Origin: Mytilus trossulus
Lineage: Eukaryota
Assembly (NCBI RefSeq): GCF_036588685.1
Contig: NC_086384.1
Coordinates: 26,412,001 to 26,476,000 of the forward strand
Reading direction: 5' to 3'
Length of the DNA stretch: 64,000 nt
The notes beneath the pieces are model-generated. The model saw only the letters and a list, made by a program, of their open reading frames with translations. It did no database searches and was not told the DNA's origin. This document shows positions 585 to 53,455 of the stretch, piece after piece; position 1 is the first letter of the stretch; the number at the start of each line of letters is the position of its first letter. The position numbers and the translations under genes were made by a program.

Positions 585-2199
585 TCCAATAACTCTCGTC
601 TTTGTTACATAGTGAAATGGGCCAAACGTCAATTGAAAGAAAAGAAGTATAGTGAATCATCAATATGTAAAAACAGGAGATATTTCAATTAATCGAAGTC
701 TTCCAATATAAAGCCTGAAAAGGACATTGGACGTAAGCATAAGACCAGACTCAGACTTGGACCGCATCGAATTGGATCATTGAAATCATGCAACCGTTAG
801 TATACAAGTTCAACCCTTAATGTAGACGAAAACGCCTTAAATTGTTGGAGAAAAGATCTATATGATCAAAGCCAGCATATCCGCTACCTGAATTATTTCT
901 ATCTGCAATAAAGTGATTCATGTAAGCAAGAGTAGATATAACTTTATTTGGTTCAGAAAGGATTTGTAGCCCTTTTTATAACTCATTAACTAATAAACTC
1001 ATTATAGATACCAGGATAAAATGAATCGTTGTTTGAGTAAAGACCAGTGGCGAATATTTCTGTGTACGCCAAGCCGATTCGGGAAGACCTTATCAAAGGA
1101 ATTAGGCAGCAACTATTTACTTCATTTCATAGGGAGGGGAAATGGGAGCGGGGGGGGGGGGGGGGTAGGGGGCGTGGGCTATTTGTTTTTTTCATGACAA
1201 ATTTTGGTGACAAGTCGAAATCAATTTTAGCATTATATATAGAGTGAAACAAAACAAAATTCAGGGCCAAAAACTGGAAACATTTTTGGTTTCCAAAACA
1301 AAATCCATAGCTCACCACCCCCACCCCTTGCCTTTATGTTTTATACTCAACTAAAATAGTCCCCCCCCCCATCGAAAAATCAATTGGTTGCTGCCTTATG
1401 GGTTCGGCAATGATGCTGCTTTGAGTCTTGATAAAGAACGTTAATTTTTTTAACAAAGAAAAATCTGTAAAATTTAGACAATAATTTCTGTAAAGAACTA
1501 TATACTAATAATTATCAAAAATATCAATTTTACTCAAAAATAGTTTCCTCCTTAAATATATACACCTTAAAACTAATGTCCTAAATGCCTAGTTTTGTGT
1601 ACACTTAACCTACACAAGGCCTACATTGACTATCGACTGTGTGTAGATAAAACATGATTTAAACTACATGTAAACATTGAGTTTTATCAATGGGAACGCA
1701 ATTGTGTTTAGTTTACGTGTGAGTTACACTAACACAACACCGAATTTAGGTCAATGTGAACACGGCCTTATTTCAACAAAAATGAGTCCAGTTTAACAAA
1801 ATTGTGTAGCATACTACATATTTAAAATTTTGTCATACAAAATTATCTTTCAGTGGACAAAACTTGCTTTTGTCACTGAACACAGACTTTGTTAGGCTAC
1901 CTTATTTGAAAATTGGGCGGCAAAAGTCATTTTTGTATGCAAATTAGTTAAGTTTGGATTCTGTTAACTAATTTGCATAAAAAACTGATATTTCGTCTCA
2001 AAATTCAATTTTGTGTTTATTTTTGTGTAGACAAAATCAAGTTTGGTTAAAACGTCAAATATGTTTGCACAAAAATAAACACAAAATTGAATTTTGTCAT
2101 TCTTTTGTAGACGAAATTCATTTTTGTCATGACAAAATTGACTTTTGTGTCTACTTTTTTATGACAAAATTGACTTTTGTGACTAAAAATTGTCATTTT

Positions 2200-17300: not shown

Positions 17301-19678
17301 ATATATATTATATGTAACTTAATATGAAACCTATATTGCCAATAATTATATTATTTCATACAACATTTTTACAATTAACAACAAACCTGTTCAAGATGTT
17401 GAGTAATGGCTTCTTTCCCTTGTAGTATTGTGGTCAAAGCTCTCTCATGGTGAGGCACCCAGCGTGTCCCACCGACTCTGGTTGGTGTTAACATCTTCTG
17501 ATCTAAGCTTTTGAAGCTAGCCTGCAAGTTAGATCTGTTCAGTGGACTGTATCTAAAAAATCAGACATTTATACTTCAACGTGTGATAACTTTTAATTTC
17601 ATTATAAAGTGCTATGCAAAATTTGTTTTAAGTATGAAGAAAAGGGGATTAACAAATTACAGAATAGAGCTTGTAAGAAAACATTCATGTAACAAGGACA
17701 CACATGAACAACATTTGTGCATTAAATGCAAATAAATAAATAAATGAATTTGTCCTTAATAAAACCAAGTTTATGCTAAAAGTCATAGAATTTTTGACGT
17801 TTTGAATTTTAACACACATACTAAAAACTAATACACGGAAATTGTAAAAAGAAATTTAATTCATACTTGTAAAACAGATAGATGTTCAGCATCAGCGCAT
17901 CACATCGCTGCCAGATTTTCACCATCTTGATTGCATCTTTGTATGCCAATTCAATCCTATAAAAAACATATGGACACATGATAGACATGAACAGCTGCAC
18001 ATGAAAGACTCCTATTGATTAATACATGATTGATTGATGTAATGAATGATCAGATGAAATATTGGTTGGACAGGAAAACTAGATAAAATATGTACATGTA
18101 CTTAACAAGACATTATGTTGTACTGTTATACCAATGTCCCAGGTTAGGGGAGGGTTTTGATCCCACTAACATGTTTAACCCTGCCACATTATTTATGTAT
18201 GTGCCTGTCCCAAGTCAGGAGCCTGTAATTCAGTGGTTGTTGTTTGTTTATGTGTTACATATTTGCTTTTCGTTCATTTTTTTTACATAAATAAGGCCGA
18301 TACATTGTAGCTTTCCTGTTTACATTGTTTTACATTGTCTTATAGCTGACTTTGCGGTATATGGTTGCTCATTGTTGAAGGCCATACAGTGACCTATAGT
18401 TGTTAATGTTTTGTCATTTTGGTCTTTTGTGGATAGTCTCATTGGCAATCATACCATATCTTCTTTTTTATATAGTCAAGTGTGCATAGACTAGTGTACG
18501 TACCTGTGTGCTGAACAATGAATTGCATGAACTGGTTTGCTGGTCATGTCACTTATTCTCTTTACCACTCCACTAGACTTTCCTAACATCACTGATGCTC
18601 CGTCAGTGCCCATAGCAATAAGCTTGTCTTTCCATGATTGCTGGAATCTCTCTGTTAACAAAGTACTAATGGCAATACTTATGTTATTACCATCAGCTTT
18701 GGCAACATTCTTCACACCAATAAAAAGAGTTGACACCTATTAACAGAAAAATATTTATTATATTTTATTGTTATAAATTTTAAAGGACCTCGGCTCCATA
18801 ATTTTTATGTTAACATGGTTAATATATAGTCATATTTTTTTTCAAAACATTTAAATATGATCAACTGTCAAGACGAAGTCCTCTTAAAATGTTATTGTCA
18901 TGCGTACCTTTTGACTTTTAATAGCAGGATTTCATCATATTATTGAAAGTATTGTAATCAGAAATAAAGGTCATATAAAAATAAAACTTCAAAAATTATG
19001 ATATCTTACCCTACATTTTACGGAACAGCGCACATAAATTATCTCCGCTTCCTTGGATGAGACGTCTGTGGACCCATCAGAAATCACAGAGATAAAACTA
19101 CTGTTTTTTATGATGTCATCCTGTTCATTCTGTCTTGCTGAAGAAATGGCATGAATAAACATTTGGCAGGATTTGTCTGTCATGTATGTGTCGCCAATGT
19201 CCAGGTCCTTGGCCTTGTCCAATGCACAGAGGCTAATATAGTCTGTGTAGGGACGATTGTTTTTACCAATATAATGTGCATTACGAAAGAGCAATGTCAA
19301 TTTGTTGAATGCAGCCTTCTTCATCATCAATAGTGTTTTCTCAGCTGTTGATTCTGATGGAGGTATTGATGTGGCCATTTGTTTTTTTACATTTTTCATA
19401 TGCGTTTCTGAGCTTCCATGCTTTCTAACAGCTTCAATTCTGTAGTTTGATGACCCCTCTACCCACTGCCCCTCTTTTTCATACTTTTTACAGGTCTTAC
19501 ATGTCATGCCTTCATCACCAGAATTTTGAAGCCAGGTGAAATCTTTTTCCCAGTCGACACAATAACTCCTTTTTCTTTTACTTTTTTCATAATTTTTCTG
19601 TGAGTCTTTCTTTTCCTCTGATGTTTTGGTTCTTTTAAGGGGAGGTTGGGTCCCGAAATAGGAATCTAATGTTGACAT
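14312..19678 (-). CDS. hAT transposase (ZNF862-like: N-terminal zinc finger, DDE core, dimerisation domain, acidic tail), 10 exons, about 756 aa
   Basis: Exons 19678-19010, 18736-18504, 17956-17867, 17552-17387, 17139-16916, 16264-16068, 15710-15590, 15417-15280, 14975-14795, 14563-14312, all GT-AG with compatible phases. Motifs CKTC...H, SDGSTD, TDGASVM, HCSAHR, TRW, LPSCSVDAERGFS, K..WRSRL. Confidence 0.9.
16597..16785. repeat. 35-bp minisatellite (about 5 copies) in a transposase intron
   Basis: Unit GCAGCTATATGTTGATTATATTGTTAAATGGTCAT at 16621, 16656, 16691, 16726 and 16761 (partial). Confidence 0.95.
18120..18472 (+). repeat. Abundant interspersed repeat of about 300-350 bp; other copies at about 7500-7780, 9650-9850, 29488-29743(-), 41425-41660(-), 51100-51265 and 62440-62711(-)
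   Basis: Recurring blocks GAGCCTGTAATTCAGTGGTTG, TTGTTGAAGGCC, GTCTCATTGGCAATCATACC. Confidence 0.85.
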
Positions 19679-20240
19679 TTCTTTTATTCAATGTCGATCT
19701 TACGCGATTTTGACTTTGTCGATACCCGGTTTTAAAAAGCGCTTGAAAGATCGTGATGTGCGGTTCATTCCGTTCATTCGCCACTTTACGCAAACGTCCC
19801 TCATGATTCAACATAAGGTAAAAGTCCGAAGAGTTCCGCCCGATTTGCGTCATTCGGCCTAATAACCTGGGGCGAGATAATGGGTCGTTCTTAAGGCTAG
19901 CTGTCGAGTCACATATATGATTATAAGTGTAAACATCCTGTCAATCGTGAAGTAAAATAAATTTATTAATTGAAAGCGTGACATGAATGCTTTAATCTTA
20001 TTTTAGCATTGAAATAACCAGATCATACACAAAATTCAGGGTGTCCACAGGACTACTGATTTACAATTTTTGGGTAGTCCGCCTTGTTTTTAGGGAGGCA
20101 CCGGACTACCGGACTACCGTTAGTGTCGAACCCTGATAGGTATCAGAAATTATTCTGAAAATTTTGAATTTATTTAACACATAATACATGTAAGTGAACA
20201 AAATGTATATAAAAAGATGGGTTTTTGTTTCAGTTTCACA

Positions 20241-26290: not shown

Positions 26291-28242
26291 TTTTTATACG
26301 ACCGCAAATTTTGAAAAAATTTTCGTCGTATATTGCTATCACGTTGGCGTCGTCGTCGTCGTCGTCGTCCGAATACTTTTAGTTTTCGCACTCTAACTTT
26401 AGTAAAAGTGAATAGAAATCTATGAAATTTTAACACAAGGTTTATGACCATAAAAGGAAGGCTGGTATTGATTTTGGGAGTTTTGGTCCCAACATTTAAG
26501 GAATTAGGGGCCAAAAAGGGCCCAATTAAGCATTTTTTTGGTTTTCGCACTATAACTTTAGTTTAAGTTTATAGAAATCTATGAAATTTTGACACAAGGT
26601 TTATGACCACAAAAGAAAGGTTGAGATTGATTTTGGGAGTTTTGGTTTCAACAGTTTAGGAATTAGGGGCCAATAAAGGGCCAAAATAAGCATTATTCTT
26701 GGTTTTCGCACAATAACTTTAGTTAAAGTAAAAAGAAATCAATGAAATTTAAACACAATGTTTATGACCACAAAAGAAAGGTTGGTATTGATTTTGGGAG
26801 TTTAGGTCCCAACAGTTTAGGTAAAAGGGGCCAAAAAGGGACCCAAATAAGCATTTTTCTTGGTTTTTGCACCATAACGTTAGTATAAATAAATAGAAAT
26901 CTATGAAATTTAAACACAAGGTTTATGACTATAAAAGGAAGGTTGGTATTGATTTTGGGAGTTTTGGTCCCAACAGTTAAGGAAAAAGGGGCCCAAAGGG
27001 TCCAAAATTAAACGTTGTTTGATTTCATCAAAATTGAATAATTGGGGTTCTTTAATATGCCGAATCTAACTGTGTATGTAGATTCTTAATTTTTGGTCCC
27101 GTTTTCAAATTGGTCTACATTAAGGTCCAAAGGGACCAAAATTAAACTTAGTTTGATTTTAACAAAAATTGAAACCTTGAGGTTCTTTGATATGCTGAAT
27201 CTAAAAATTTACTTAGATTTTTGATTATTGGCCCAGTTTTCAAGTTGGCCCAAATCAAGGTCCAAAATTAAACATTGTTTGATTTCATCAAAAATTGAAT
27301 AATTGGGGTTCTTTGATATGCCAAATCTAACTGTGTATGTAGATTCTTAATTTTTGGTCCAGTTTTAAAATTGGTCTAAATTAAAGTGCAAAGGGTCCAA
27401 AATTAAACTAAGTTTGATTTTAACAAAAATTAAATTCTTGGGCCTCTTTGATATGCTGAATCAAAACATGTACTTAGATTTTTGATTATGGGCCCAGTTT
27501 TCAAGTTGGTCCAAATCAGGATCTAAAATTATTATATTAAGTATTGTGCAATAGCAAGTCTTTTCAATTGCACAGTATTGTGCAATGGCAAGAAATATCT
27601 AATTTCACAATATTGTGAAATAGCCAATTTTTTTTTAATTAAGAGTTATCTTTCTTTGTCCAGTATAGTAAGCAAGAAATATCTGCAAGAATTTTTTTTC
27701 ATTGGAGTTATCTTTCTTTGTCCAGAATTAACTTAAATCTTTGTTATATACAATATACAATGTATATTCACTTTTTACTACCAACTGATAAATTTAAATA
27801 ATCTTTACCATTCAGTGATAACAAGCAGTTTTTTACATCTTAATATTTTATGATGTATTTAAATGAGTAGTAATTGTTGCAAACTCCATTAGAATATTTT
27901 AATTGAAATTAGTTTTGGAATAAGGGAAAGGGGGATGTGATTAAAAAATTGGGTTCAATTTTTCTCATTTGAAATTTCATAAATAAAAAGAAAATTTCTT
28001 CAAACATTTTTTTGAGAGGATTAATATTCAACAGCATAGTGAATTGCTCTAAGAGAAAACAAAAATTTTAAGTTCATTAGAACACATTCATTCTGTGTCA
28101 GAAACCTATGCTGTGTCAACTATTTAATCACAATCCAAATTTAGAGCGGAATCCAGCTTGAATATTGTGTCCATACTTGCCCCAACCGTTCAGGGTTCAA
28201 CCTCTGCGGTCGTATAAAGCTACGCCCTGCGGAGCATCTGGT
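26291..28242 (+). mobile_element. Helentron-derived (HINE-like) element with internal satellite
   Basis: Subterminal IR TTTATACGACCGCA / TGCGGTCGTATAAA, (CGT)n microsatellite, internal tandem repeats, 3' hairpin GCTACGCCCTGCGGAGC. Confidence 0.75.
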
Positions 28243-29825: not shown

Positions 29826-32189
29826 ATGGCGTCTACACAATCCTATCAAAAAATTACTTTGAATTCTGACGATGTACCGGGAGCTAAAATTGATTTCGAT
29901 GATCTTGACAATTATGTGAATGTTCAGCTCAGACGCTGGCTTGAATGCAGAGGGTTAAAAACCGGTGGAAACAAATCTGACCTCGTTCAAAGGTGAGTAA
30001 ACATCGAACAACGCCCACTTCCTTTGTGTTGTCCAACTAAACGTGACATTCTTTTACAGGTAAATTGTCACTTGTCATTCGATTGGGGTTTAATCGTAAA
30101 AGGCGTAACGGGATATTTAAATCGTATGACCTGAAATTATTATATTTAAATCATTATTTATATAATATATGCGCCACTTTAAGTACGATAAACCTGTGAT
30201 TTTTATCAACCTCGTTTTCTTTTTACTTTCTGTTTGTTTTTCTGTTCTTCACTTGCCGTAAATATATAAATATTAGAAATTATTTTAAAATATGTACCCG
30301 TATGTGCATTTAAAAATAAAAGTGTGAAGAAATCAATAATAATGTTGATAAACGTTTCTGTGTTAGAATACTGTTAGTAAATACGGCGGCGTCCTGTTTA
30401 AGCATGGCATTTTTATTTATCTCACGGCCAGATTTAAGTAAAGAGTCTGTGATCAAGGTCTGTCATAAACATGTTAATTATGTCAACTTGTATTTTTTTT
30501 AGATGTAAGGACGCAGTTAAAGCTGGCAAGTTAGAAGAAATTGACATTACTATTGATGGTGGGAAATGGTGTGATTTGAAGGCAGCTAAGACAAAGAAGG
30601 ACCCAAGTCCCTCTTTACAGGTACTGATACCCCCAGTCCTTGGATGGAAACCATTTCCTTCTAGGCAAATACCAGCAAACTTTAATTACGGTCACATATA
30701 TCATTATCTTCTGGAAAGTGTTGTGATGGAAGGTGAAAATGGTAAAACTGAAGACACTGACCTAAGCCATTTGACATCAAAGCCACTTACCAAAGGCCAT
30801 CAGTATGTTAAGAGTGGTAGTGTGAGTGAAATAATGGACAATGAGCGTAACCATCATTACTTTATTAAGGCAAAAGTTGCAGCATCTATGCGTAACGAGG
30901 AAAGGATAGTGCAAGTTACACTATCCTGTTTAAGTGGAGCTATTAGAGATGCTAGCTGTACATGTCCTGGGTCAGCTCTCGGACGTTGTAATCATGTGGC
31001 AGCAGTTTTACTGACATTAGATAAACACTGTAAGGAGTTTGGACATGACCTTATAGCATGTACTAGTAAACAATGTGAGTGGGGAAAGGGACAAAAAAAC
31101 AAAAAAAATCCAGGAAAAATTACAGATGCTTCATACACATCTTACAAACCTAAACTTCTGAAGCTTACGGAGTTTGACCCTAGGCCTACCGATTTAAGAA
31201 AAGCTAGCGATGTAAACATGAACAGTTTTTCAAAAAATTTGAAGTACGATTGTATTAGTTCAGGAAAAACTTCAATGTGGCACACACTAATCAAGTACAC
31301 ATATGATGATTATGAAATTTCTCCTGAACGTAGAGGAATTATAAAGTCTCAAGCTTGGGATTTTTTTACTAACATAAAGCAGGAATGTAGCTTATTTGAA
31401 AGAGATGTTTTTATGATACCCAAGACAGAATCACAATCAGAATCAATCGAGTGGAAAGCATCCCGTTGGTTCAGGATAACTGCATCCACAGCTAAAAAGG
31501 CAAATACATTAGGATACTTGCTAAAATCACCTCCAACAGATGCAAGTCAGAGAAAATTTCAGGCATACATCAGCAGTACCGTTTGGAATCTTTCATCTTT
31601 TAAATACACATCACCAGACATGCTGTATGGAATTGAAAATGAAGATAAAGCCAGAGAGGACTATTATCAACTTATGGCAAATAAGGTTCCAGACTTTAAG
31701 GTTGAAAAGACTGGATTCTGGGTTTGTAAAATGTGGCCTGAATTAGGATGCAGCCCAGATGGTCTTGTAACAGATCCCTCAGAAACCCCAAAACATGGAT
31801 TGCTGGAGATTAAATGTTTGAAAATATTCCGCAAAATAGCTCCATCTGACCTTTTTAAGAGCCTTGAGAAGAATCAAACTTCCAAAAAAGACCTTTACAG
31901 TGCATGTTTTGGAATACCCACAGCTGACAATACTTCTCTCGAGCTGAAGACAACAAACATGTACTACTATCAAATCCAATTTCAGTTAGCGATAATGGGC
32001 CTAAATTGGTGTGATTTTGTCATGTGGTCGCCAATAGGAAAACCTAATGTTGAGAGGATAAGACGTGATGAACAGCTTATTGGAGACATGATAGGAAATG
32101 TTACATCATTATGGCACCAAGTTATTGCACCAGAAATATTTGAAATGCGTGTGCCCAGAAAATTGAAACCAGTTATTTTAGATTTATGA
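29826..32189 (+). CDS. SAP + SWIM zinc finger + YqaJ (lambda-exonuclease-like PD-(D/E)XK) protein; exons 29826-29992 and 30503-32189 (about 617 aa)
   Basis: SAP-like QLRRWLECRGLKTGGNKSDLVQR; SWIM CTCPGSALGRCNH; YqaJ motifs RITAS, GIENE, GCSPDG, LEIKC, YYYQIQFQL. Confidence 0.9.
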
Positions 32190-32570: not shown

Positions 32571-34955
32571 TTATTTAACAAGTGGTTCTTGGAAATTAAC
32601 CAAGCAGCATGCTACAAAAACCATTTGGTCTGATATTTGTGTTAGTGATAATGGAATATTTCCACTCAGTAATTTAAATTTTTTTACTCTTTCAATCACT
32701 CTTTCTACATGTATTCTTGCTTTAGCAATACGACGGGTCTGCAACTCTTCCTGAGCAGTAAATTTAGACCTTTTTCCAAGAAAAGGCGGAATGTTAAGGG
32801 TTGCTTGTCTTGCCATTAGAAAATCTTCTATCAAAAAGCCTCGATCAGCCAGGACAAGATCACCTGGATTAATGTATTCCAAAAAGCCGCATTTTTCAAC
32901 AATTGCTCTATCACTTATAGATCCTTCATATAAATTAGACACATATACTATTGCACCATTTGGGGCTACTCCTATAAGACATTTATATGTATGATGACTT
33001 TTATACGAGGAATACAAATTTCCTTGACGACGAAAGTCTCGTGGCATTTGAACAAAAAATTCTGTACAGTCAATTGTGCATCGTATGTTTTTAAAACATC
33101 TGAAAACACGTGGCATATACTCTTTAAAGTGCTGACGCTCTGGAAACATAATATTTCTATAGTCATTAAAATGGCAATATAAAAACTGAATCCATGTTGT
33201 AAATATCACGCTAACTGTTGAAGATGAAACTCGAAAGAAGTGCGACATGACATCTAGATTGAATCCTCTTTTTAAGCGTACCAATGTTAGAAATAGTTCT
33301 TCTTTTGGCTCTAGTTTACGATTTCCTTTTTTCACATTTTCCTTTGTATTTTTACCATCCCAGTAAGTCAGTTTATTTACACTTTCACCAAGAAATTCAA
33401 ACAATGTCATAAATTGATTATATTGTAGTCCTGTAAATAATTTCAATCGTGCATCATCACTTTTCAAACTTTCTAATGATAGCATTGCATCAGAAGATGC
33501 ATTGTTATTTTCCTGATTTTGTTCTACTTTCATTTTGTTTTTTAATACCATGTTTTCAATCTTTGCATTTAGTATTTCTTTTCCATATACAGTTTGAACT
33601 TCCTTGTCATGTTGAATGCCTGATTCAGTTTGAACAGATTTCTCTTTATGTGTTTCACATTGAGCCAGTGTAGACTGTAAAAAAAAAAATCAAATAAATA
33701 TTAATAAACAAAAACATACATGTCAGACATATTTCCAATATTCAAGACTATACTTGCACTCAAATTATTATTAATACAGTTAGACAGTTGTTTCAATTAT
33801 TTCAACACACACAAGAATACATAACACTTGCACGACATGGTGCATGAAATAATAAATATATAATATAATTAAACATGTACATGTACCTGTAGTGCCCCTA
33901 TTTTTCTTCTTGCCTTTATCTAATATAAAGACAATTAATAACAATTTTATCTTACCGTTATTGATTCAGTACAATCCTTGTCAATACTTGGATCTGGTCC
34001 AGTGTATTCGGACAACTCAAGAAGACTTTCAGCTGCTGTAGTTACATCTTTTCTCAAGATTTTTACGTGTTGTTTTCTTGGTGTGGGAGCTTTTCTTTTC
34101 CGCTTAAAACGATTCATCTGTAATAATATAAAGTTAGGATAAAAAATTGTATAATATTGCATGCATTAAAAGTATCTTAGAATATTAATTGAGAAAACTT
34201 TTCCAGTGACGAACGACTGAAAGCTATAAATGGAAAAGTGTTTTGATATTAAATTTTGTGATTTTACTACCCTCCCTGCCTTTTCATTATCAGGGGAGGA
34301 ACATGTGTGATAATATACTTGTGCATTAAAATTCAACTTTACCCAAAATATACATGATATACAATAAATTCATATAAATAAACTTTCATTATATTTTTAT
34401 TTTTTACATTAAACTAATCAGGTATTATTAAGAATTAAAAAAGTATTTATTTACAAGTTCTAAAGTATATTGACAGTAAAGCACAAACAATAAAACTGAA
34501 ATGAAAATTATATAAAATTAGTTATATAAATAATTACTTATATGATGTTGATCAGGGTACAATTTACACAAAAATACGAAAATCACATTGTACATGTTGT
34601 TAACTGTCATGATTTGTAAAGGTAAACAATAAAATGCACCCACCTGGTCCTCGTTGTGCAACAGTGCAGGCAGTGGGTCCGGATGAAGTACGGTTGGCCC
34701 TTTACTACCGACGAAGTGTTTACTACACATGTATGTACAGCGTTTGATCTTTTCCACATTAAAATCCTCCTTGGGTCTCCCACATGCCTTAATCCAACGT
34801 TCACATTTCTCTCGTTGCGTGATGGGCTTTGGAAAAGGGATGAAAAACACATCCTTCATGTCATCACGATGTCTATATCTTGTGTCACTATTACATGTCC
34901 CGTAACAACAATGTTTCACACCTTCAGACTTATGTTTTACCGGAGCAACTTCCAT
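32571..34955 (-). CDS. THAP-HTH-DDE (DDE_Tnp_4-type) transposase; exons 34955-34644, 34117-33956, 33674-32571 (about 525 aa)
   Basis: THAP CCYGTC..FPKP..W..C..MCSKHF..P; HTH region LFLTLVRLKRG..F.VS.STVS; catalytic motifs IDCTE, LADRGF, RIHVERVI; phases compatible. Confidence 0.92.
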
Positions 34956-37903: not shown

Positions 37904-40900
37904 ATGAAAAACAAAAACAAAAGATCAAGGTAAGAAGAGTATAAAATAATTCAGAGTGAATATTTTTTATACCGGGAAAGAACGGATGCAGAGGCTAAAC
38001 ATTTTAAGAATTTTAAAATGATCAATTGCAAAAAAAATGAAAAGTTTCCGATAATTTGTTTTTATCTGTTTCATTACATAATATATGCTGCATGCACCCG
38101 TCGAATGCGTTTTTTAAATGAAAATTGCAAAGAAAAAAGGAGGGTTAGTTGTAAATAACAAAAATTCTCAAATCATTTCCAAAATGCCTATCATGATTAA
38201 CTAAAAGCTGCTTTGCACATGTATAAAATAACCAAATTAAAACCATTATATTTTGACATCTTTCTTTACTATACAGTGATTGCACCACCGTACGTGATAC
38301 ATACGGGTGCTCGTTGGAGAGAAATCGATAACTGCATAGTGATTTTTAAATATTTACATATACAACTGTATATATATCATGTAGACAAACATACTCGTAA
38401 TTAGGTCTTTCCACTTTTCGTGGAAAGACCTTTTGTTTTTCTTCTGGTTATAAGGTCTTTCCACTTTTCGTGGAAAGACCTTTTGTTTTTCTTCTGATTT
38501 TTTTTTTTTTTTTTTCTTCTGCCGTCTGAGATAAAATTGAGAATGGAAATGGGAAATGTGTCAAAGAGACAACAACCCGACCAAATAAAAAAACAACAGC
38601 AGAAGGTCACCAATAGGTCTTCAATGTAGCGAGAAATTCCCGCACCCGTAGGCGTCCTTCAGCTGGCCCCTAAACAAATATATACTAGTTCAGTGATAAT
38701 GAACGCCATACTAATTTCAAAATTGTACACAAGAAACTAATATAAAAATAATACAATACTAACAAAGGCCAGAGGCTCCTGACTTGGGACAGGCGCAAAA
38801 ATGCGGCGGGGTTAAACATGTTTGTGAGATCTCAACCCTCCCCCTATACCTCTAACCAATGTAGAAAAATAAACGCATAACAATACGCACATTAAAACTC
38901 AGTTCAAGAGAAGTCCGCGTCTGATGTCAGAAGATGTCACCAAAGAAAATAAACAAAATGACAATAATGCATAAATAACAACAGACTACTAGCAGTTAAC
39001 TGACATGCCAGCTCCTGACTTCAATTAAACTGACTGAAAGATTATGATTTCATCATATGAACATCAGACACAATACTTCCCGTTAGGGGTTTAGTATCAT
39101 ACCATCATAACATATGATTGGAAGCACATAACCCGTGTCATGCCAACAAATGTTTTTAGAATAAATGTCTTTAGTTCCGACGCAAAGACCTTATCAGTGA
39201 CTCAATATTAACGCCAAAATATGCAATCTTTAATGACTTGACAACAGTATCGTAATTATATCCCTTCTTAATCAGTCTATTTAAAGGTTTTGTAAGTTTC
39301 TGAGGTGAATACTGACACCTTTGTGCTTTATAAAGAATATTTCCATAAAAAATTGGATGTGAAATACCTGAACGTATAAAAAGTCTGCATGTTGAGCTAT
39401 ATTTCCGAATGATGTCTTTATACCGATGATAAAATTTAGTAAAAGTTTTGACTAGTTTGTGATATCGAAAACCCTGGTGTAATAATTTTAAAGTAATACA
39501 TAAATTTCTCTCGTTAAAATCTAAAACATTGTTACAAACACGAGCGAATCGTACAAGTTGAGATATATAAACACCGTAAGATGGTGACAAGGGAACGTCA
39601 CCATCTAAAAACGGATAATTAACGATAGGAAATGAAAAATCATCCCTTTTATCATAAATTTTAGTATTCAGCTTTCCGTTAGTGATATAGATATCAAGAT
39701 CGAGGAAAGGGCAGTGGTCATTATTAGTATTAGCTCTATTTAAAGAAAGTTCAGCAGGATAAATTTCATTAATACTGAAGTCGTCATTATTGAGAGCCAA
39801 AATATCATCCAAATATCTAAAAGTATTATTAAATTTGTTTATCAGATGTTGTTTTGATGGGTCTTTGCTTATTTTTGTCATAAATTGTAACTCATAACAA
39901 TACAAAAAGAGGTCCGCAATAAGTGGTGCACAGTTAGTCCCCATTGAAATTCCGATAATCTGACGATATACGGAATCCCCAAAGCGAACAAAAATGTTAT
40001 CTAGTAAAAGTAGGGCATATATAGTATCAAAGCATGTCAAATTAACATAGTTTTTTTGTTTATTGCTACTAAAAAATGACCTAAAAGAGTTTGAACATAT
40101 ATATTCACATTCTGATTTCACTGTGTCTAAACCACACCGGCAAAATTTGCTCGGACTCGATGCTATCTAACATCCGGCACAATGACGGAACACCAATAGA
40201 CAAAAGAAAGGTAGGTTTCTCCTTATTGTTTTATTCTTTTTATGATATCGAAGAATATATATACATATACAACTATTTTCTATTGTGAGATGCAATATTT
40301 TTTACAACCGTTCTATATTAACGGAGAAATAAGTCAAAATGCATGTCAAAATGACGAATTGAGTGAACCTTGCCTCGAAATTGTTTAATTTCTCGTTAAA
40401 TTTTTCTCATTGTACGGAAAGAAAGGTACGGGAAGATAGATATTGACACGGAGATTGCAAATTAAGTTATTATGAGCATCTCATTAATTGTATCTCTGTG
40501 TATGGAACGAAAGAAAAGGGTAATGTCAAATTAAAATAAACCGGTTTCGTCAATGTTGTTACTACACAATCACCCGGTTTCGTCTATATATATCACCCGG
40601 TTTGGTTGGTTTTTTTTAACAAACAATTTATGAAAAGCAACTTTGGCACGGATCTGAACATTGTATTTCGAGAATTTAAATATATATTTATTGTAAGGTA
40701 AACTTGGCGTGTTAAAATCTATTTTAAACAGGCACTTTTGGACATAGTTAATTATGATAATACACATTTTCCTAATGAAAGGCGTATCCCTTATTTCACT
40801 TAACTTCAAACTAATTTTTAATGGAATATAAATACTCAATAGCAAACACTGGTATCTAATTATTTTGTAACATTATTATATTTTCTTTGTTTATAATAGT

Positions 40901-43900: not shown

Positions 43901-46900
43901 TGTCCGGTGAACAACTTGTTTTCGAACGACCCACAAAACTCCTTTTGAACACTGAAGTTAAATAATCAGTTCTAATGTAATGCGATTATGATTTTTTTTA
44001 TTTGACCAAACCGGGTTATGCATTTTGAAATCTATGACGAAACCGGGTTGTATACATTGACGAAACCGGCCAGTTTGATTTTAACATGACCCATTTCTTT
44101 CGTTCCATACACAGAGTTACAATTATTGAGATGCTCATAATAACTAAATTTGCAATCTCCGTGTCAATATCTATCTTCCCGTACCTTTCTTTCCGTACAA
44201 TGTGAACAATTTAACGAGAAATTAAACAATTTCGAGGCAAGGTTCACTCAATTCGTCATTTTGACATGCATTTTGACTTATTTCTCCGTTAATAGAGAAC
44301 GGTTGTAGAAAATATTGCATCTCACAATAGAAAATAGTTGTATATGTATATATATTCTTCGATATCATAAAAAGAATAAAACAATAAGGAGAAACCTACC
44401 TTTCTTTTGTCTATTGGTGTTCCGTCATTGTGCCGGATGTTAGATAGCATCGAGTCCGAGCAAATTTTGCCGGTGTGGTTTAGACACAGTGGATTTTTTG
44501 AATGCCCATTTAATTAGGTGTGTGAATTTTTTCTTAATGAGAATGTGAGGCAATGTGGTATACAGGGTAGAAAAATCAAAACTTTGAACAGATTCAAAAT
44601 CACCAATATGAGCATGCAATTTATCAAGTACTTCCAACGAGTTCTTGACACTCCAAAAGTAATTTATTCCACTATTTTCGAAGGCCTTATTTGAACAATT
44701 TATTATAAGGTTTTTAATTGTACCAAGTGTGAGATGCTTTTTTGTTTTACAACATATCGAATGGATGTTTGGCCAATGATGTTGTTCAGTAATGGAGGTT
44801 TCAAAACTCACCCTGTGTGACCGAACACTTATTCTTATAGGAGTTATCTCCCCGCGTCTCTTTTTTCTTGTTATCGCTATATCTCTATAACCGTAAAAGA
44901 TTTTTACAAACTGTTTTCACCAAATTGTTCGTCTACTCTTAGGAATGATTTGTTTTACTTTGACTGAGGTGATCAGAAGACATCTTATGTGAGTTATTTC
45001 CGTTTGAAATTTAAAATAAACGACATGTTGGGTTCATTCATACAGTATAATTTGTAGAGGCCTACAGTCTTTTGATATGAAGTCCTTGGTCCATATAAAG
45101 GAAATTGAGGTTAAAGTCAAAGGTCAAGGTCATGTTATAAATTTTGAATTTTGCTTGTTATCGTTATTCGAAAGAAACTGTAACAGTTAATGATATGATA
45201 TGTTTGCAAAATCACTGTTTACAATAAGGCACAACTTCAACTTATTCAGTCGAAGTGTTTTGGTTACCCCTTATAGGAGTTTTCTCCCCTTATGTATTTG
45301 AAATCATTATTTCTCCACAACCATACAAGTGATTGACCTCGGACCTTCTAATTTGAGTTCACTGACCCATGACCTTGAAATTGAGGTCAAGGTCAAAGGT
45401 CAAGGTCATGTTATAATTTTTTGAATTTTGCTTGTTATCGTTTTTCAAAAGAAACTGTTACAGTTAGTGATATGATGTGTTTGCCAAATTACTGTTTACA
45501 ATAAGGCGCAACTTTAACCTATTTAAGTCGAAGTGTTTTGGTTAACCCTTTTAGGAGTTTTCTCCCCTTTTGTATTTGAAATAATTATTTCTCCACAACC
45601 ATACAAGTGATTGACCTGGGGCCTTCCTATTTGAGTTCACTGACCTATGACCTTGAATTTGAGGTCAAGGTTGAATGTCAAGGTCATATTCTATATTTTG
45701 GAATTTGCTTGTTATCTATATTCAAAAGAAATTGTAACAGTTAATGATACGATGTGTTTGCCAAATAACTGTTTACAACAAGGGGCAACTTCAACCCATT
45801 TAAGTGGATGTGCTTTGGTCAACCCTTTTAGGAATTTTCTCCCCTTTTATATTTGAAATCGATATTTCTCTTCAACCATACAAGTGATTGACCTGGGGTC
45901 TTTTGATTTGAGATCACTGACCTATGACCTTGAGGTCAAGGTCAAAGGTCAACTTGACGTTTTAGATTTTGACCTTTGCTTTAAATTCTTTCTTGTTCAT
46001 TATAAAATAATTAAGTCTTTTGCATTTACCAATTTTTTTTTTAAATCAGTTTGAGGTACTAAATTACATCAACAAGGAGTGACCTTTTCTAAAATCTTGT
46101 TTAAAATTTCATTCTTAATATCGAGGTGGAAAGACCTTCAATTGTTCTCTGAAGAATTGGTTTTTAATTATTAATAAAGTTATTCAATTTAGTAGTAGTA
46201 AGGAAAATATACCTTAAGTATGCTACATCTCAAAATGCTGGCATCATTTTTTTTAATAGAAAATTTAAATAAGGAAAAATAAGACGTAGGGATACGTATA
46301 TATGGAGCCACTGAAGGACAAGAAAGCCGTTAGAGCCAAACGAATATTTATTTGTAAAATACCACCAGTTTTTTTTGGCCGAGCTTTCAAAGTTGCTTAA
46401 AATGCATCTTCTTCGCTAAAGTTTCATATCTCCTATCTGAATATCTGAGATATTTAATATTTCAGCGCTCGCAAGGAAGCAGCAGCCATTGTTATCAATG
46501 ACGAGGAGGAATTTGAGCAGGGGGATGCTGGAGCATCTAGTACTTACCCAGAACAATGCTCCAGTCTGAGGAAAGGAGGTCATGTTCTACTGAAGAATCG
46601 TCCTTGTAAGATAGTAGAGATGTCTACATCCGCCCCAGGAAAGCATGGACACGCAAAGGTATGGCAATAGTACTTCCCGCCACAAACACCGATATAATTT
46701 TATCGTACAGAAATATGAACGTCTATAAAGCAAATATTGTTGTCTCTTTGACACATTCCCCATTCCCATTCTCAATTTTATTCTCACCAAGTAATTTTAC
46801 ATATGGGGCCCCACTAGCAAATTTGGCTAATGTCTATCTGATTAGTAATGTCCCAGCACTGTAAATGCGTATGTGTAGTATACAATGAGTTGATGTGACA

Positions 46901-49289: not shown

Positions 49290-50700
49290 TTTTTGTCGAG
49301 CCTACATTCCGTCGTCGGCGGCGTCTACAAATATTCACTCTGTGGTTAAAGTTTTTTAAAAGGAGTAGGTCCAGTAAGACCCCTTTTTGGCCCCAAAATA
49401 AAGCAGTTTTACAAAATTGTTAAAATGTAAACTTTTAGTTATTTATTGGATAGTAGAATTGTTCTGCTACATAAATATGGGCTGTTTTTGACGTTACAAT
49501 GCACATATATTGGGTACTAGCACCATTAAGTCACGCTAAATTACTGAAATATTCAAAATTCCAGCATTTTAGTTAAATTTCAGACGGTTTCCGTGTAAAA
49601 CGAAAGTGGCCGCATTCGTGTTCATCCAAAATATTGAAATGGAAGTTGTATTTGATAATAATACATAACATATATAAAGATTGAGGATGAACACAAATGC
49701 GGCCAATTTAATTTTTGACAAAAACCATCTAAAAAATGACATTTTTTCGCATATTTGGTTGATTTTTCATATTTGAGCTTGAATCGGAGCGTGTTTAATG
49801 ATGAAACCAGTTGAAATCTTTCATATATATTATTTGAATCAAATGAAATGGAAACTTAAGTGTATAAAAAGTGGTCAAAATCTTTCGTCAGATGAAACTG
49901 AAATTTGAGTCCAAAATCGGTCCTTACCGGACCTACTCCTTTAATAACTTTCTTAAACTATACTGGATTTCTACCAAACATGGACAGAAGCTTGTTTATG
50001 ATCATAAGATAGTATCAAGAAGTACAGTTTGCAAAAATAAAATTCCATTTTTTCTGTTTTTTACTTATAAATGGACTTAGTTTTTCTGCGGGGAAACATA
50101 ACATTCACTCTGTGGTTAAAGTTTTTAAAATTTTAATAACTTTCTTTAACTATTCTGGGTTTGTACCAAACTTGGACAGAAGCTTGTTTATGATCATGAG
50201 ATAGTATCCAGAAGTAAATTTTGTAAAAAAATCAATCCATTTTCTCCGTATTATACTTTTAAATGGACTAAGGGTTTTTGCCAGGAAACAACACATTCAC
50301 TCTGTGGTTAAATTTTTTTTTGAAATTTAATAACTTTCTCATACTTTTTTAAATTTGTACCAAACTTGGACAGAAGCTTGTTTATGATCAAAAGCTAGTA
50401 TCTAGAAAGGAAATTTTGTCAATATTTGGTACCTGTGTATCTGTATTTTACTTATAAATGGACTTAGTTTTTCTTCCAGTTAATTTTACATACAGTCTGC
50501 AGTTGAAGTTTTTTAAACATTTATTCGATTCATAAACTATCCTGAAATTTTCACCAAACTTGGACAGAAGCTTCTTACAATCTCAAGATAGTATCAAGAG
50601 GAATATTTTTATTGATTGTTTTCCTCATTTTTGTTGAGCCTGGGAGTTACAGCAAAAGTAGGCGAGACACTGGGTTCCGCGGAACCCTTATAATTTTTTT
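49290..50700 (+). mobile_element. HINE-like element with tandem internal units
   Basis: 5' TTTTTGTCGAGCCT; 3' AGGCGAGAC plus hairpin GGGTTCCGCGGAACCC; repeated ACCAAACTTGGACAGAAGCTTG units. Confidence 0.65.
49361..49940. mobile_element. Kolobok-like MITE
   Basis: TIR AGGAGTAGGTCC(A/G)GTAAG at a TTAA-type site; a degenerate reverse copy lies at about 60380-60770. Confidence 0.7.
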
Positions 50701-51733: not shown

Positions 51734-51881
51734 ACTTCATGGGGTTTACATGGTATGGGCTTTGCTCATTCTTGAAGGCCGTATGGGGACCTATAGTTCT
51801 TAATTTCTGTGTCATTTGGTCTCTTTTTATACGACCGCAAAAAAGTCAATAGAAATCTATGAAATTTTAAAACGAGTTTTA

Positions 51882-52248
51882 TTTTGATAACTATTTACAC
51901 CACAGGATCGATGCCACTGCTGGTGGACGTTTCGTCCCCGAGGGTATCACCAGCCCAGTAGTCAGCACTTCGGTGTTGACATGAATATCAATTATATGGT
52001 CATTTTTATAAATTTTCTGTTTTCAAGACTTTGAATTTTTCAAAAAACTAACGATTTTCTTACCCCAGGAGTAGATTACCTTAGCCGTATTTGGTACTTT
52101 TTGGAATTTTGGATCCTCAATGCTCTTCAAATTCGTATTTATTTGGCTTTTTAAACTATTTTGATCTGAGCGTCACTGATGAGTCTTATGTAGACGAAAC
52201 GCGCGTCTGGCGTATAAAATTATAATCCTGGTACTTTTGATAACTATT
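51882..52248 (+). mobile_element. Non-LTR retrozyme monomer (353-nt period)
   Basis: Starts and ends with TTTTGATAACTATT (51882 and 52235), contains a hammerhead ribozyme, has no ORF, and interrupts the host repeat at ...TTTAT^GACC. Confidence 0.8.
52171..52212 (+). ncRNA. Type I minimal hammerhead ribozyme
   Basis: CGUCA-CUGAUGA-GUCU(UAUGU)AGAC-GAAA-CGCGCG-UC^UGGCG. Stem I CGUCA/UGGCG; palindromic stem III ACGCGCGU; predicted cleavage after C52207. Confidence 0.9.
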
Positions 52249-52407
52249 ATGACCGTAAAAGGAAGGTTGGAATGGATTTTGGAAGAATTGGTCCCAACAG
52301 TTTAGGAATTGGGGGCCAATAGGGGCCCAAATAAGCATATTCTTTGTTTTCGGACTATAACTTTAGTTTAAGTCAATAGAAAACTATGAAATTTTGAAAC
52401 AAGGTTT

Positions 52408-53455
52408 ATAAAATTGAGAATGGAAATGGGGAATGTGTCAAAGAGACAACAACCCGACCAAATAAAATAACAACAGCAGAAGGTCACCAACAGGTCTTCA
52501 ATGTAGCGAGAAATTCCCGCACCCGGAGGCGTCCTTCAGTTGGCCCCTAAACAAATATATACTAGTTCAGTGATAATGAACGCCATACTAATTTCCAAAT
52601 TGTACACAAGAAACTAAAATTACAATACAAGACTAACAAAGGCCAGAGGCTCCTGACTTGGGACAGGCGCAAAAATGCGGCGGGGTTAAACATGTTTGTG
52701 AGATCTCAACCCTCCCCCTATACCTCTAACCAATGTAGAAAAGTAAACGCATAACAATACGCACATTAAAATTCAGTTCAAGAGAAGTCCGAGTCTGATG
52801 TCAGAAGACGTAACCAAAGAAAATAAACAAAATGACAATAATACATAAATAACAACAGACTACTAGCAGTTAACTGACATGCCAGCTCCAGACTTCAATT
52901 AAACTGACTGAAAGATTATGATTCCATCATATGAACATCAGGCACAATCCTTCCCGTTAGGGGTTTAGTATCATACCATCATAACATATATGAGAAGAAC
53001 ATAACCCGTGTCATGCCAACAACTGTTTTTAGAATAAATGTGTTTAGTTCCGATGCAAAGACCTTATCAGTGACTCAATATAAACGCCAAAATATGCAAT
53101 CTTTAATGACTTGACAACAGTATCGTAATTATATCCCTTCTTTATAAGTCTATTCAAAGGTTTTGTAAGTTTCTGAGGTGAATACTGACACCTTTGTGCT
53201 TTATAAAGAATATTTCCATAAAAAATTGGATGTGAAATACCTGAACGTATAAGAAGTCTGCATGTTGAGCTATATTTACGAATGATGTCTTTATACCGAT
53301 GATAAAATTTAGTAAATGTTTTGACTAGTTTGTGATATCGAAAACCCTGGTGTAATTATTTTTCAGTAATACATAAATTTCTCTCGTTAAAATCTTAAAC
53401 ATTGTTACATACACGAGCGAATCGTACAAGTTGAGATATATAAACACCGTAAGAT
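52408..53455 (-). mobile_element. Second, more truncated copy of the same Penelope/Naiad element
   Basis: Highly similar to 38531-39580 (RT C-terminus plus 3' UTR). Confidence 0.9.
52926..52993 (-). promoter_or_regulatory. SECIS-like element, second copy
   Basis: Same AUGAU/AAA/UGAU fold. One G-U pair is G-C and one A-U pair is an A-G mismatch relative to copy 1. Confidence 0.75.

Follow-up and report, generated by a model that had tools for sequence, protein, structure and literature searches.

The closest described relative of the element analyzed here is the non-LTR retrozyme of Mytilus galloprovincialis (Cervera and de la Pena 2020, PMC7229834), a tandem unit of 350-390 nt (construct Mg353) with low GC content, a type I hammerhead and no ORF, present in thousands of copies and giving rise to sense-strand RNA. 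In the accessible text of that paper, the mussel repeat is described without a fixed 3' end, a start signal or a named helper, and a 2020 review, as far as its available sections go, stated that no conserved motif in animal retrozymes indicates a helper (PMC7761336).

The ends and tails of the retrozyme family studied here resemble those of Penelope-like elements (PLEs), whose reverse transcription starts within the RNA (PMC11167929). Two PLE systems are particularly close. In the anole Poseidon element PAc (Frangieh et al. 2024, PMC11167929), as probably also in our family, reverse transcription starts internally, downstream of the hammerhead cut, downstream RNA is needed, the nick occurs at ATT and a tail is left. 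PAc differs in being autonomous, with a C-terminal endonuclease, two start sites and a linear uncut template in vitro. Naiad PLEs (Craig et al. 2021, PMC8557442) share with the retrozyme a fixed 3' end, strong 5' truncation and partial tandems, but they encode an EN-RT and were described without hammerheads, whereas the retrozyme is non-coding and carries one hammerhead per unit. A recent preprint argued that animal retrozymes originate from PLEs and are mobilised by them (Li, Clavereau, Pollet, bioRxiv 10.64898/2026.07.22.740005), on the grounds of co-occurrence and of a pLTR likeness observed in Xenopus; in its accessible text there are no molluscs, Naiad appears in coral only, and neither a start site nor an RNA signal is given.

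In this work, we analyzed a retrozyme copy at positions 51882..52248 of a 64,000-nucleotide stretch of the Mytilus trossulus genome (hereafter, the window). In our judgment, this copy is probably a 5'-truncated insertion of 1.04 units, pasted by a Naiad RT-endonuclease that docked on a stem-loop shared by both kinds of element, with circular RNA as the probable template. Taken alone, the copy is unremarkable among thousands of others; the interest lies in the family pattern, given that the previous link came from co-occurrence and pLTR likeness in frogs only. The element is known, and its proposed mechanistic link to Naiad is apparently unpublished: no report of an RNA signal connecting retrozymes with Naiad was found in the open literature.

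The copy at 51882..52248 and its hammerhead

The family to which this copy belongs has units of 353-360 nt, in arrays that reach about 19 units. The 1.3-Gb genome contains 18,241 exact matches to a 23-mer of the unit, and the closest other copies, many of them within arrays, are 96-97% identical. As in other metazoan non-LTR retrozymes, there is one type I hammerhead per unit, the sequence is non-coding, falls within the 150-450-nt range with a GC content below 50%, occurs in tandem and dispersed, and is transcribed; no ORF over 150 aa was found in the 51882..52248 copy. It is almost certainly a copy of the mussel-type non-LTR retrozyme already described, as judged by size and anatomy.

Numbering the unit from the first base after the hammerhead cut (+1), the copy runs from +28 to +353 and then from +1 to +41, totaling 367 nt. 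The 14-mer TTTTGATAACTATT is found at its 5' truncation point (51882..51895, plus strand, unit +28 to +41) and again at 52235-52248, with a spacing of 353 nt. Two matches occur within the window, against 0.01 expected, and none of 100 shuffles reached two. A first-pass annotation of this DNA had proposed a 353-nt unit with a 14-nt direct repeat, and a retrozyme copy slightly over one unit, both of which our data confirm, the repeat being exact. As a sequence the repeat exceeds chance; its length of 14 is nothing special.

The insertion splits a 161-bp host repeat, with the left piece at 51841..51882 and the right piece at 52247..52409, both on the plus strand. Empty copies of this repeat (window 26377-27006) read GGTTTATGACC, and the RNA joints 51878>52247 match such an empty site. 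The left piece ends in TTAT (51879-51882) and the right piece begins with a second TTAT (52247-52250), a 4-nt duplication or microhomology; nothing else was duplicated at the insertion, whereas larger target site duplications (TSDs) were described for the M. galloprovincialis retrozyme (PMC7229834). The 14-mer is missing from the empty site and is therefore not a TSD, which settles a check that the first-pass annotation had named.

Tandem arrays are also found in the window at 26377-27531, 45101-45952 and 49940-50599, with periods of 161, 261, 277 and 192; the 161-bp unit is the one that hosts the retrozyme insert. A copy of a sister retrozyme family has its 3' end at 998-1015 (minus strand). 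The open frames of the window include 30453-32186 (plus strand, 578 codons), 32574-33689 (minus, 372) and 18992-19687 (minus, 232).

The type I hammerhead, at 52170..52213 (plus strand), matched the Rfam model Hammerhead_1 (RF00163) with 33 bits and E 1.9e-6, one bit below the gathering score; the canonical type I fold and the palindromic stem III seen at first pass are confirmed. Stem II has 4 bp and stem III has 2 bp, closed by a palindromic GCGC loop; ACGCGCGT, itself palindromic, comprises stem III plus loop, and the cut is predicted after GTC at 52207. A hammerhead dimer is energetically possible according to cofolding (-31.5 against 2 x -10.2 for the monomers). Nevertheless, the 2-bp stem III and full stem II set this hammerhead apart from the dimer-dependent minimal type of newt or PLEs, in which stem III has at most one pair and monomers cleave poorly. 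The earlier view that cleavage requires a dimer is not supported either, as the cloned genomic mussel repeat was reported to self-cleave as a monomer, at about 0.1/min (PMC7229834). A hammerhead look-alike on the minus strand (51919-51955) was discarded: it has no Rfam match, its core is broken and it is not conserved in the sister families. The probability that this stretch pairs with the hammerhead core is at most 0.04 in circular folds. A working hammerhead on both strands, as in ambisense viroid-like RNAs, was not found.

In two stranded runs from a single study, family RNA came mainly from the hammerhead strand (about 5:1), a ratio that applies to the family and not to this locus. At 51904 and 51907 the reads carry the family letters instead of those of the copy (968/980 in run X21 and 952/982, respectively), in runs that may come from another individual or species. 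RNA joints stepping back 353 nt were seen, compatible with circles and arrays alike, and read ends did not accumulate at the hammerhead cut. Since the copy holds one hammerhead, no unit-length circle can be released from it by double cleavage. The single hammerhead, together with a weakened P1 helix (see below), makes this copy likely inert, a dead end.

Fixed 3' ends and 5' truncation in the family

Copies stopping after GATAAC (GATAAC-TATT pattern) gave 1,632 matches in the young subfamily. Insertion ends were studied in the first 100 matches listed, all of them on a single contig (C1) and 98 distinct; one ran off its locus and 11 had element-like left flanks, leaving 86 insertions. Seventy-four of these match the unit to +41 and 42/86 do so at +42, and the fixed 3' end of the family lies 41 nt beyond the cut. 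In the 51882..52248 copy, the tail from the cut to this end is 52208..52248 (plus strand, 41 nt), which includes the right copy of the 14-mer and whose end probably marks the start of reverse transcription. The start had been placed away from the cleavage site in the earlier reading, in agreement with these ends; the start is not arbitrary but a site fixed family-wide, probably set by a Naiad-like stem-loop that the earlier reading did not include.

At the 5' side the ends decay. The 86 insertions have a median length of 207 nt measured to +37; 79 extend beyond the first cut and 29 are longer than one unit, and the loss per 60 nt shows no spike either at the cut or at +28, where the 51882..52248 copy ends. 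Genome-wide 5'-end patterns gave 67 matches at the cut, 112 at +4 and 57 at +28; among 30 inspected in each case, 17, 13 and 7 were true 5' ends, and the true ends are estimated at about 68, 70 and 24, respectively. The ratio 24/70 equals the 0.34 survival beyond one unit. The 14-nt overlap therefore reflects no more than a random stop in copying, and the redundancy is a chance 5' truncation of this copy. With 29/86 insertions exceeding one unit, the redundancy does not count as evidence for a circular template, contrary to what had been suggested at first pass, although the circle itself is still the leading reading. An apparent 5' hotspot inside the hammerhead proved to be an artefact of the 50-base padding used in the search.

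Metazoan non-LTR retrozymes have TSDs longer than 4 bp when any are present. The TSD signal here was weak, with a mean of 4.1 nt against 3.6 nt in shuffled data, and duplications of at least 5 nt were present in 23/86 insertions, against up to 27 after shuffling. A fixed 3' end with a tail, variable 5' truncation and partial tandems form the signature of PLE-mobilised sequences, and all of them are found here. Inverted 5' copies, which are typical of Naiads, occur within 300 nt at only 3/97 retrozyme 5' ends.

Two sister retrozyme families (6,910 and 5,686 pattern matches) have tails that differ from that of this family, with ends some 47 and 33 nt beyond the respective cuts (hand count). In 24/30 and 22/30 of the inspected copies, the end fell 5-7 nt before the same ACTGG helix.

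A stem-loop shared with Naiad elements

Past the fixed 3' end, the unit continues into a stem-loop block of the kind found at Naiad 5' ends. In the 51882..52248 copy it occupies 51896..51959 (plus strand), with helices P1 (51902-06/51955-59) and P2 (51910-15/51943-48) and a terminal hairpin. Next to it is an 8-bp hairpin with a UUCG loop (51961..51980, plus strand); it has paired changes in a sister retrozyme family, and the hairpin was not seen in the Naiads. Three retrozyme families and two Naiad groups all end 5-7 nt ahead of this covarying stem-loop, and for this reason we consider the block a likely docking and start signal for the Naiad RT. In the available text of PMC8557442 the stem-loop is not described, and the equal offset from the 3' end is a feature that Naiads and the retrozyme have in common.

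In an 18-row alignment, 96.5% of the P1 and P2 positions are paired, against 21-59% in slid controls, and 4/11 pairs have two-sided changes, a number reached by 67/500 shuffles. All the two-sided P1 changes come from three related Naiads, that is, from few independent lineages. In the middle of this alignment (A1), MAFFT displaced the Naiad rows by 3 nt, and scoring was therefore restricted to P1 and P2. The block (+42..+104) is also where lineage-level changes are scarcest in proportion to private mutations (5/32 vs 65/123, p 0.011). A bulged stem-loop is the preferred model; a pseudoknot (GCTGGT/ACCAGC) was rejected, its 5' side being invariant, with no two-sided change and a mismatch in 10/18 rows. 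The 51882..52248 copy has private changes at +50 and +53 (51904 and 51907), unlike all 36 arrays, and they raise the predicted energy of the block from -39.1 to -30.3 kcal/mol, with most of P1 gone.

Candidate helpers were sought with a GIY-YIG search in which 150/615 candidates were scored; Naiads were recognised by a GIY-YIG domain N-terminal to the RT and by the CxC, GxKF/Y and DKA motifs. The first family (protein P0001) has GIY-YIG at residues 151-243 of 1025 (E 2e-7), N-terminal to the RT, together with CDC, GPKF, DKA and YIDD. Directly after its own 3' end, its tandem copies carry the same block plus an extra hairpin, and the block scored 43 against the 4.3-kb Naiad unit, with a maximum of 32 over 1,000 shuffles. 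The second family (L490), found with a looser block pattern, is represented by a copy broken by stops (RVT_1 E 2.5e-5; CTC, GPKY, DKA, YIDD) whose protein is 57% identical to P0001. Its block is identical at 53/64 nt without gaps, has the same predicted fold, lies 5-6 nt beyond its 3' end and shows an additional two-sided change in P2 (GATGTC/GACATC). The Naiad ends stand at the retrozyme-like offset from the block in 14-18/18 and 16-18/18 cases, with read ends at 3083-4, and 3/97 retrozyme 5' ends directly adjoin a Naiad-type 3' end. The RNA reads contained almost no Naiad 5' reads and no Naiad start.

PLEs with C-terminal endonuclease were rejected as helpers, since 7/7 loci are devoid of the block (scores of 19-20), and those examined end in (TA)n. 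Two such loci (L300 and L329) have a hammerhead (CTGATGA..GAAA) just past the ORF, followed by (TA)n ends.

A Naiad-type neighbor of the retrozyme, a 3' fragment of a SECIS-bearing element, is found at 52410..53454 (minus strand; tblastn match at 53454-53233, SECIS-like motif at 52952-52982, the two presumably continuous). Its insertion point is the TTTAT of the adjacent host-repeat unit that corresponds to the one used by the retrozyme, with loose ends at 52408-9. A search for the 5' block of this SECIS-type Naiad returned five unrelated matches and not the block. Elsewhere in the window (39054-40166, minus strand), a Naiad-type RT fragment (45% to P0001, E 6e-54) is followed by an Rfam SECIS_1 match; selenoprotein Naiads were reported in clams and spiders (PMC8557442).

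A Naiad 3' UTR matches the retrozyme tail over 29 nt, which at first suggested that the two elements have a tail in common. The match is instead a passenger insertion of 27 nt, given that empty copies of the site occur in the same 3' UTR: at L331:5500-6300, in a Naiad subfamily, the tail fragment lies in the third of three repeats, the other two being empty, with at most 1 nt duplicated. The reverse case is seen at L073:2577-2670, where a 45-nt Naiad 3' fragment lies within a retrozyme exactly at the tail, directly upstream of the block, which suggests self-targeting or a template switch.

Based on these sequence comparisons, Naiad is probably the helper of the mussel retrozyme. The likeness of the blocks could instead reflect shared ancestry without present-day use. 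If the block were an ancestral relic or a promoter element, with another PLE or a DNA-level process moving the repeat, its motif GGTCGATGCC, which we take to be box-B-like, would fit the promoter reading. The genome does contain PLEs with hammerheads, and a different helper has some room, with 150/615 candidates scored. We regard this explanation as improbable: five families of two kinds share the block-to-end distance despite different tails, the C-terminal-endonuclease PLEs examined lack the block and end in (TA)n, and a fixed 3' end combined with 5' truncation is a signature of retrotransposition.

Template and proposed route of insertion

In the route that we favor, tandem arrays are transcribed on the hammerhead strand, as the RNA reads show at the family level, and the hammerheads would excise monomers that are ligated into circles, as published for the mussel family. 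The Naiad protein would then bind the stem-loop (+48 to +105) and prime at an AT-rich nick at +41, as the fixed ends and shared fold indicate, so that copying begins about 6 nt upstream of the stem-loop. From there the RT would cross the sealed cut and continue around the circle, dropping off at random; in the 51882..52248 copy, a drop-off after 367 nt would have produced the 14-nt overlap.

If copying began at +41 on a cut linear monomer, the inserts would be 41 nt long; the RT therefore has to pass the cut. For a cut linear monomer to be the template, the RT would have to jump from the 5' end, just 41 nt away, to the 3' end, thereby mimicking a circle. Template jumping is known for non-LTR RTs. 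Linear monomers do exist in mussels (PMC7229834). Nonetheless, the spacing across the cut site is exact in 477/478 spans (a total that includes overlapping loci repeatedly) and no pile-up of 41-nt insertions was found, which makes a jumping RT very improbable.

An uncut linear multimer transcribed from the arrays is a stronger competitor, with the same Naiad helper and start signal and with the circles as a by-product. Long arrays are available as sources, the mussel hammerhead is slow at the rate given above, and the anole PLE takes unprocessed RNA in vitro with internal initiation, its own hammerhead not being needed (PMC11167929). Furthermore, tandems do not require circles, because Naiads form them without a hammerhead. 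On the other hand, partly cut multimers should leave an excess of 5' ends at the cuts, and none was found. Circles also dominate the RNA pool, accounting for >95% of family RNA in some mussel extracts and for 75-90% in other extracts (PMC7229834).

The arrays point in the same direction. In a set of 36 arrays, with seven duplicates and two old arrays left out, only 10/233 variable sites within arrays correspond to family alleles, compared with 23% of the differences between arrays; 203 are singletons, and four arrays of 4-5 units have no internal differences. The variants are thus mostly private and not inherited from a source array, meaning that a single haplotype gave rise to each insertion, which is expected for a circle. 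Young parent arrays with uniform units could likewise yield homogeneous arrays. On balance, we consider the uncut multimer unlikely and, given a Naiad helper, a circular template likely.

A broader interpretation, to which we give slightly better than even chances, is that retrozyme circles are parasites of the hammerhead-less Naiads. A captured Naiad 5' stem-loop of 60 nt would fix the start of the telomerase-related RT, like a template boundary, and rolling-circle copying of the small circle would generate the tandem genomic arrays. With its covariation and its fixed distance from the insertion end, the shared RNA signal points to a helper clade, a binding site and a start nucleotide; it makes the rolling-circle model testable and provides a telomerase-related RT with a compact, defined RNA element. 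If this is true, other RNA circles could use the signal as well.

The same block is present in two or more additional families of hammerhead-like repeats (loci L431-L454, on metagenome contigs, L421 and L425). At locus L452, the core of the block is itself repeated in tandem at 49-nt spacing.
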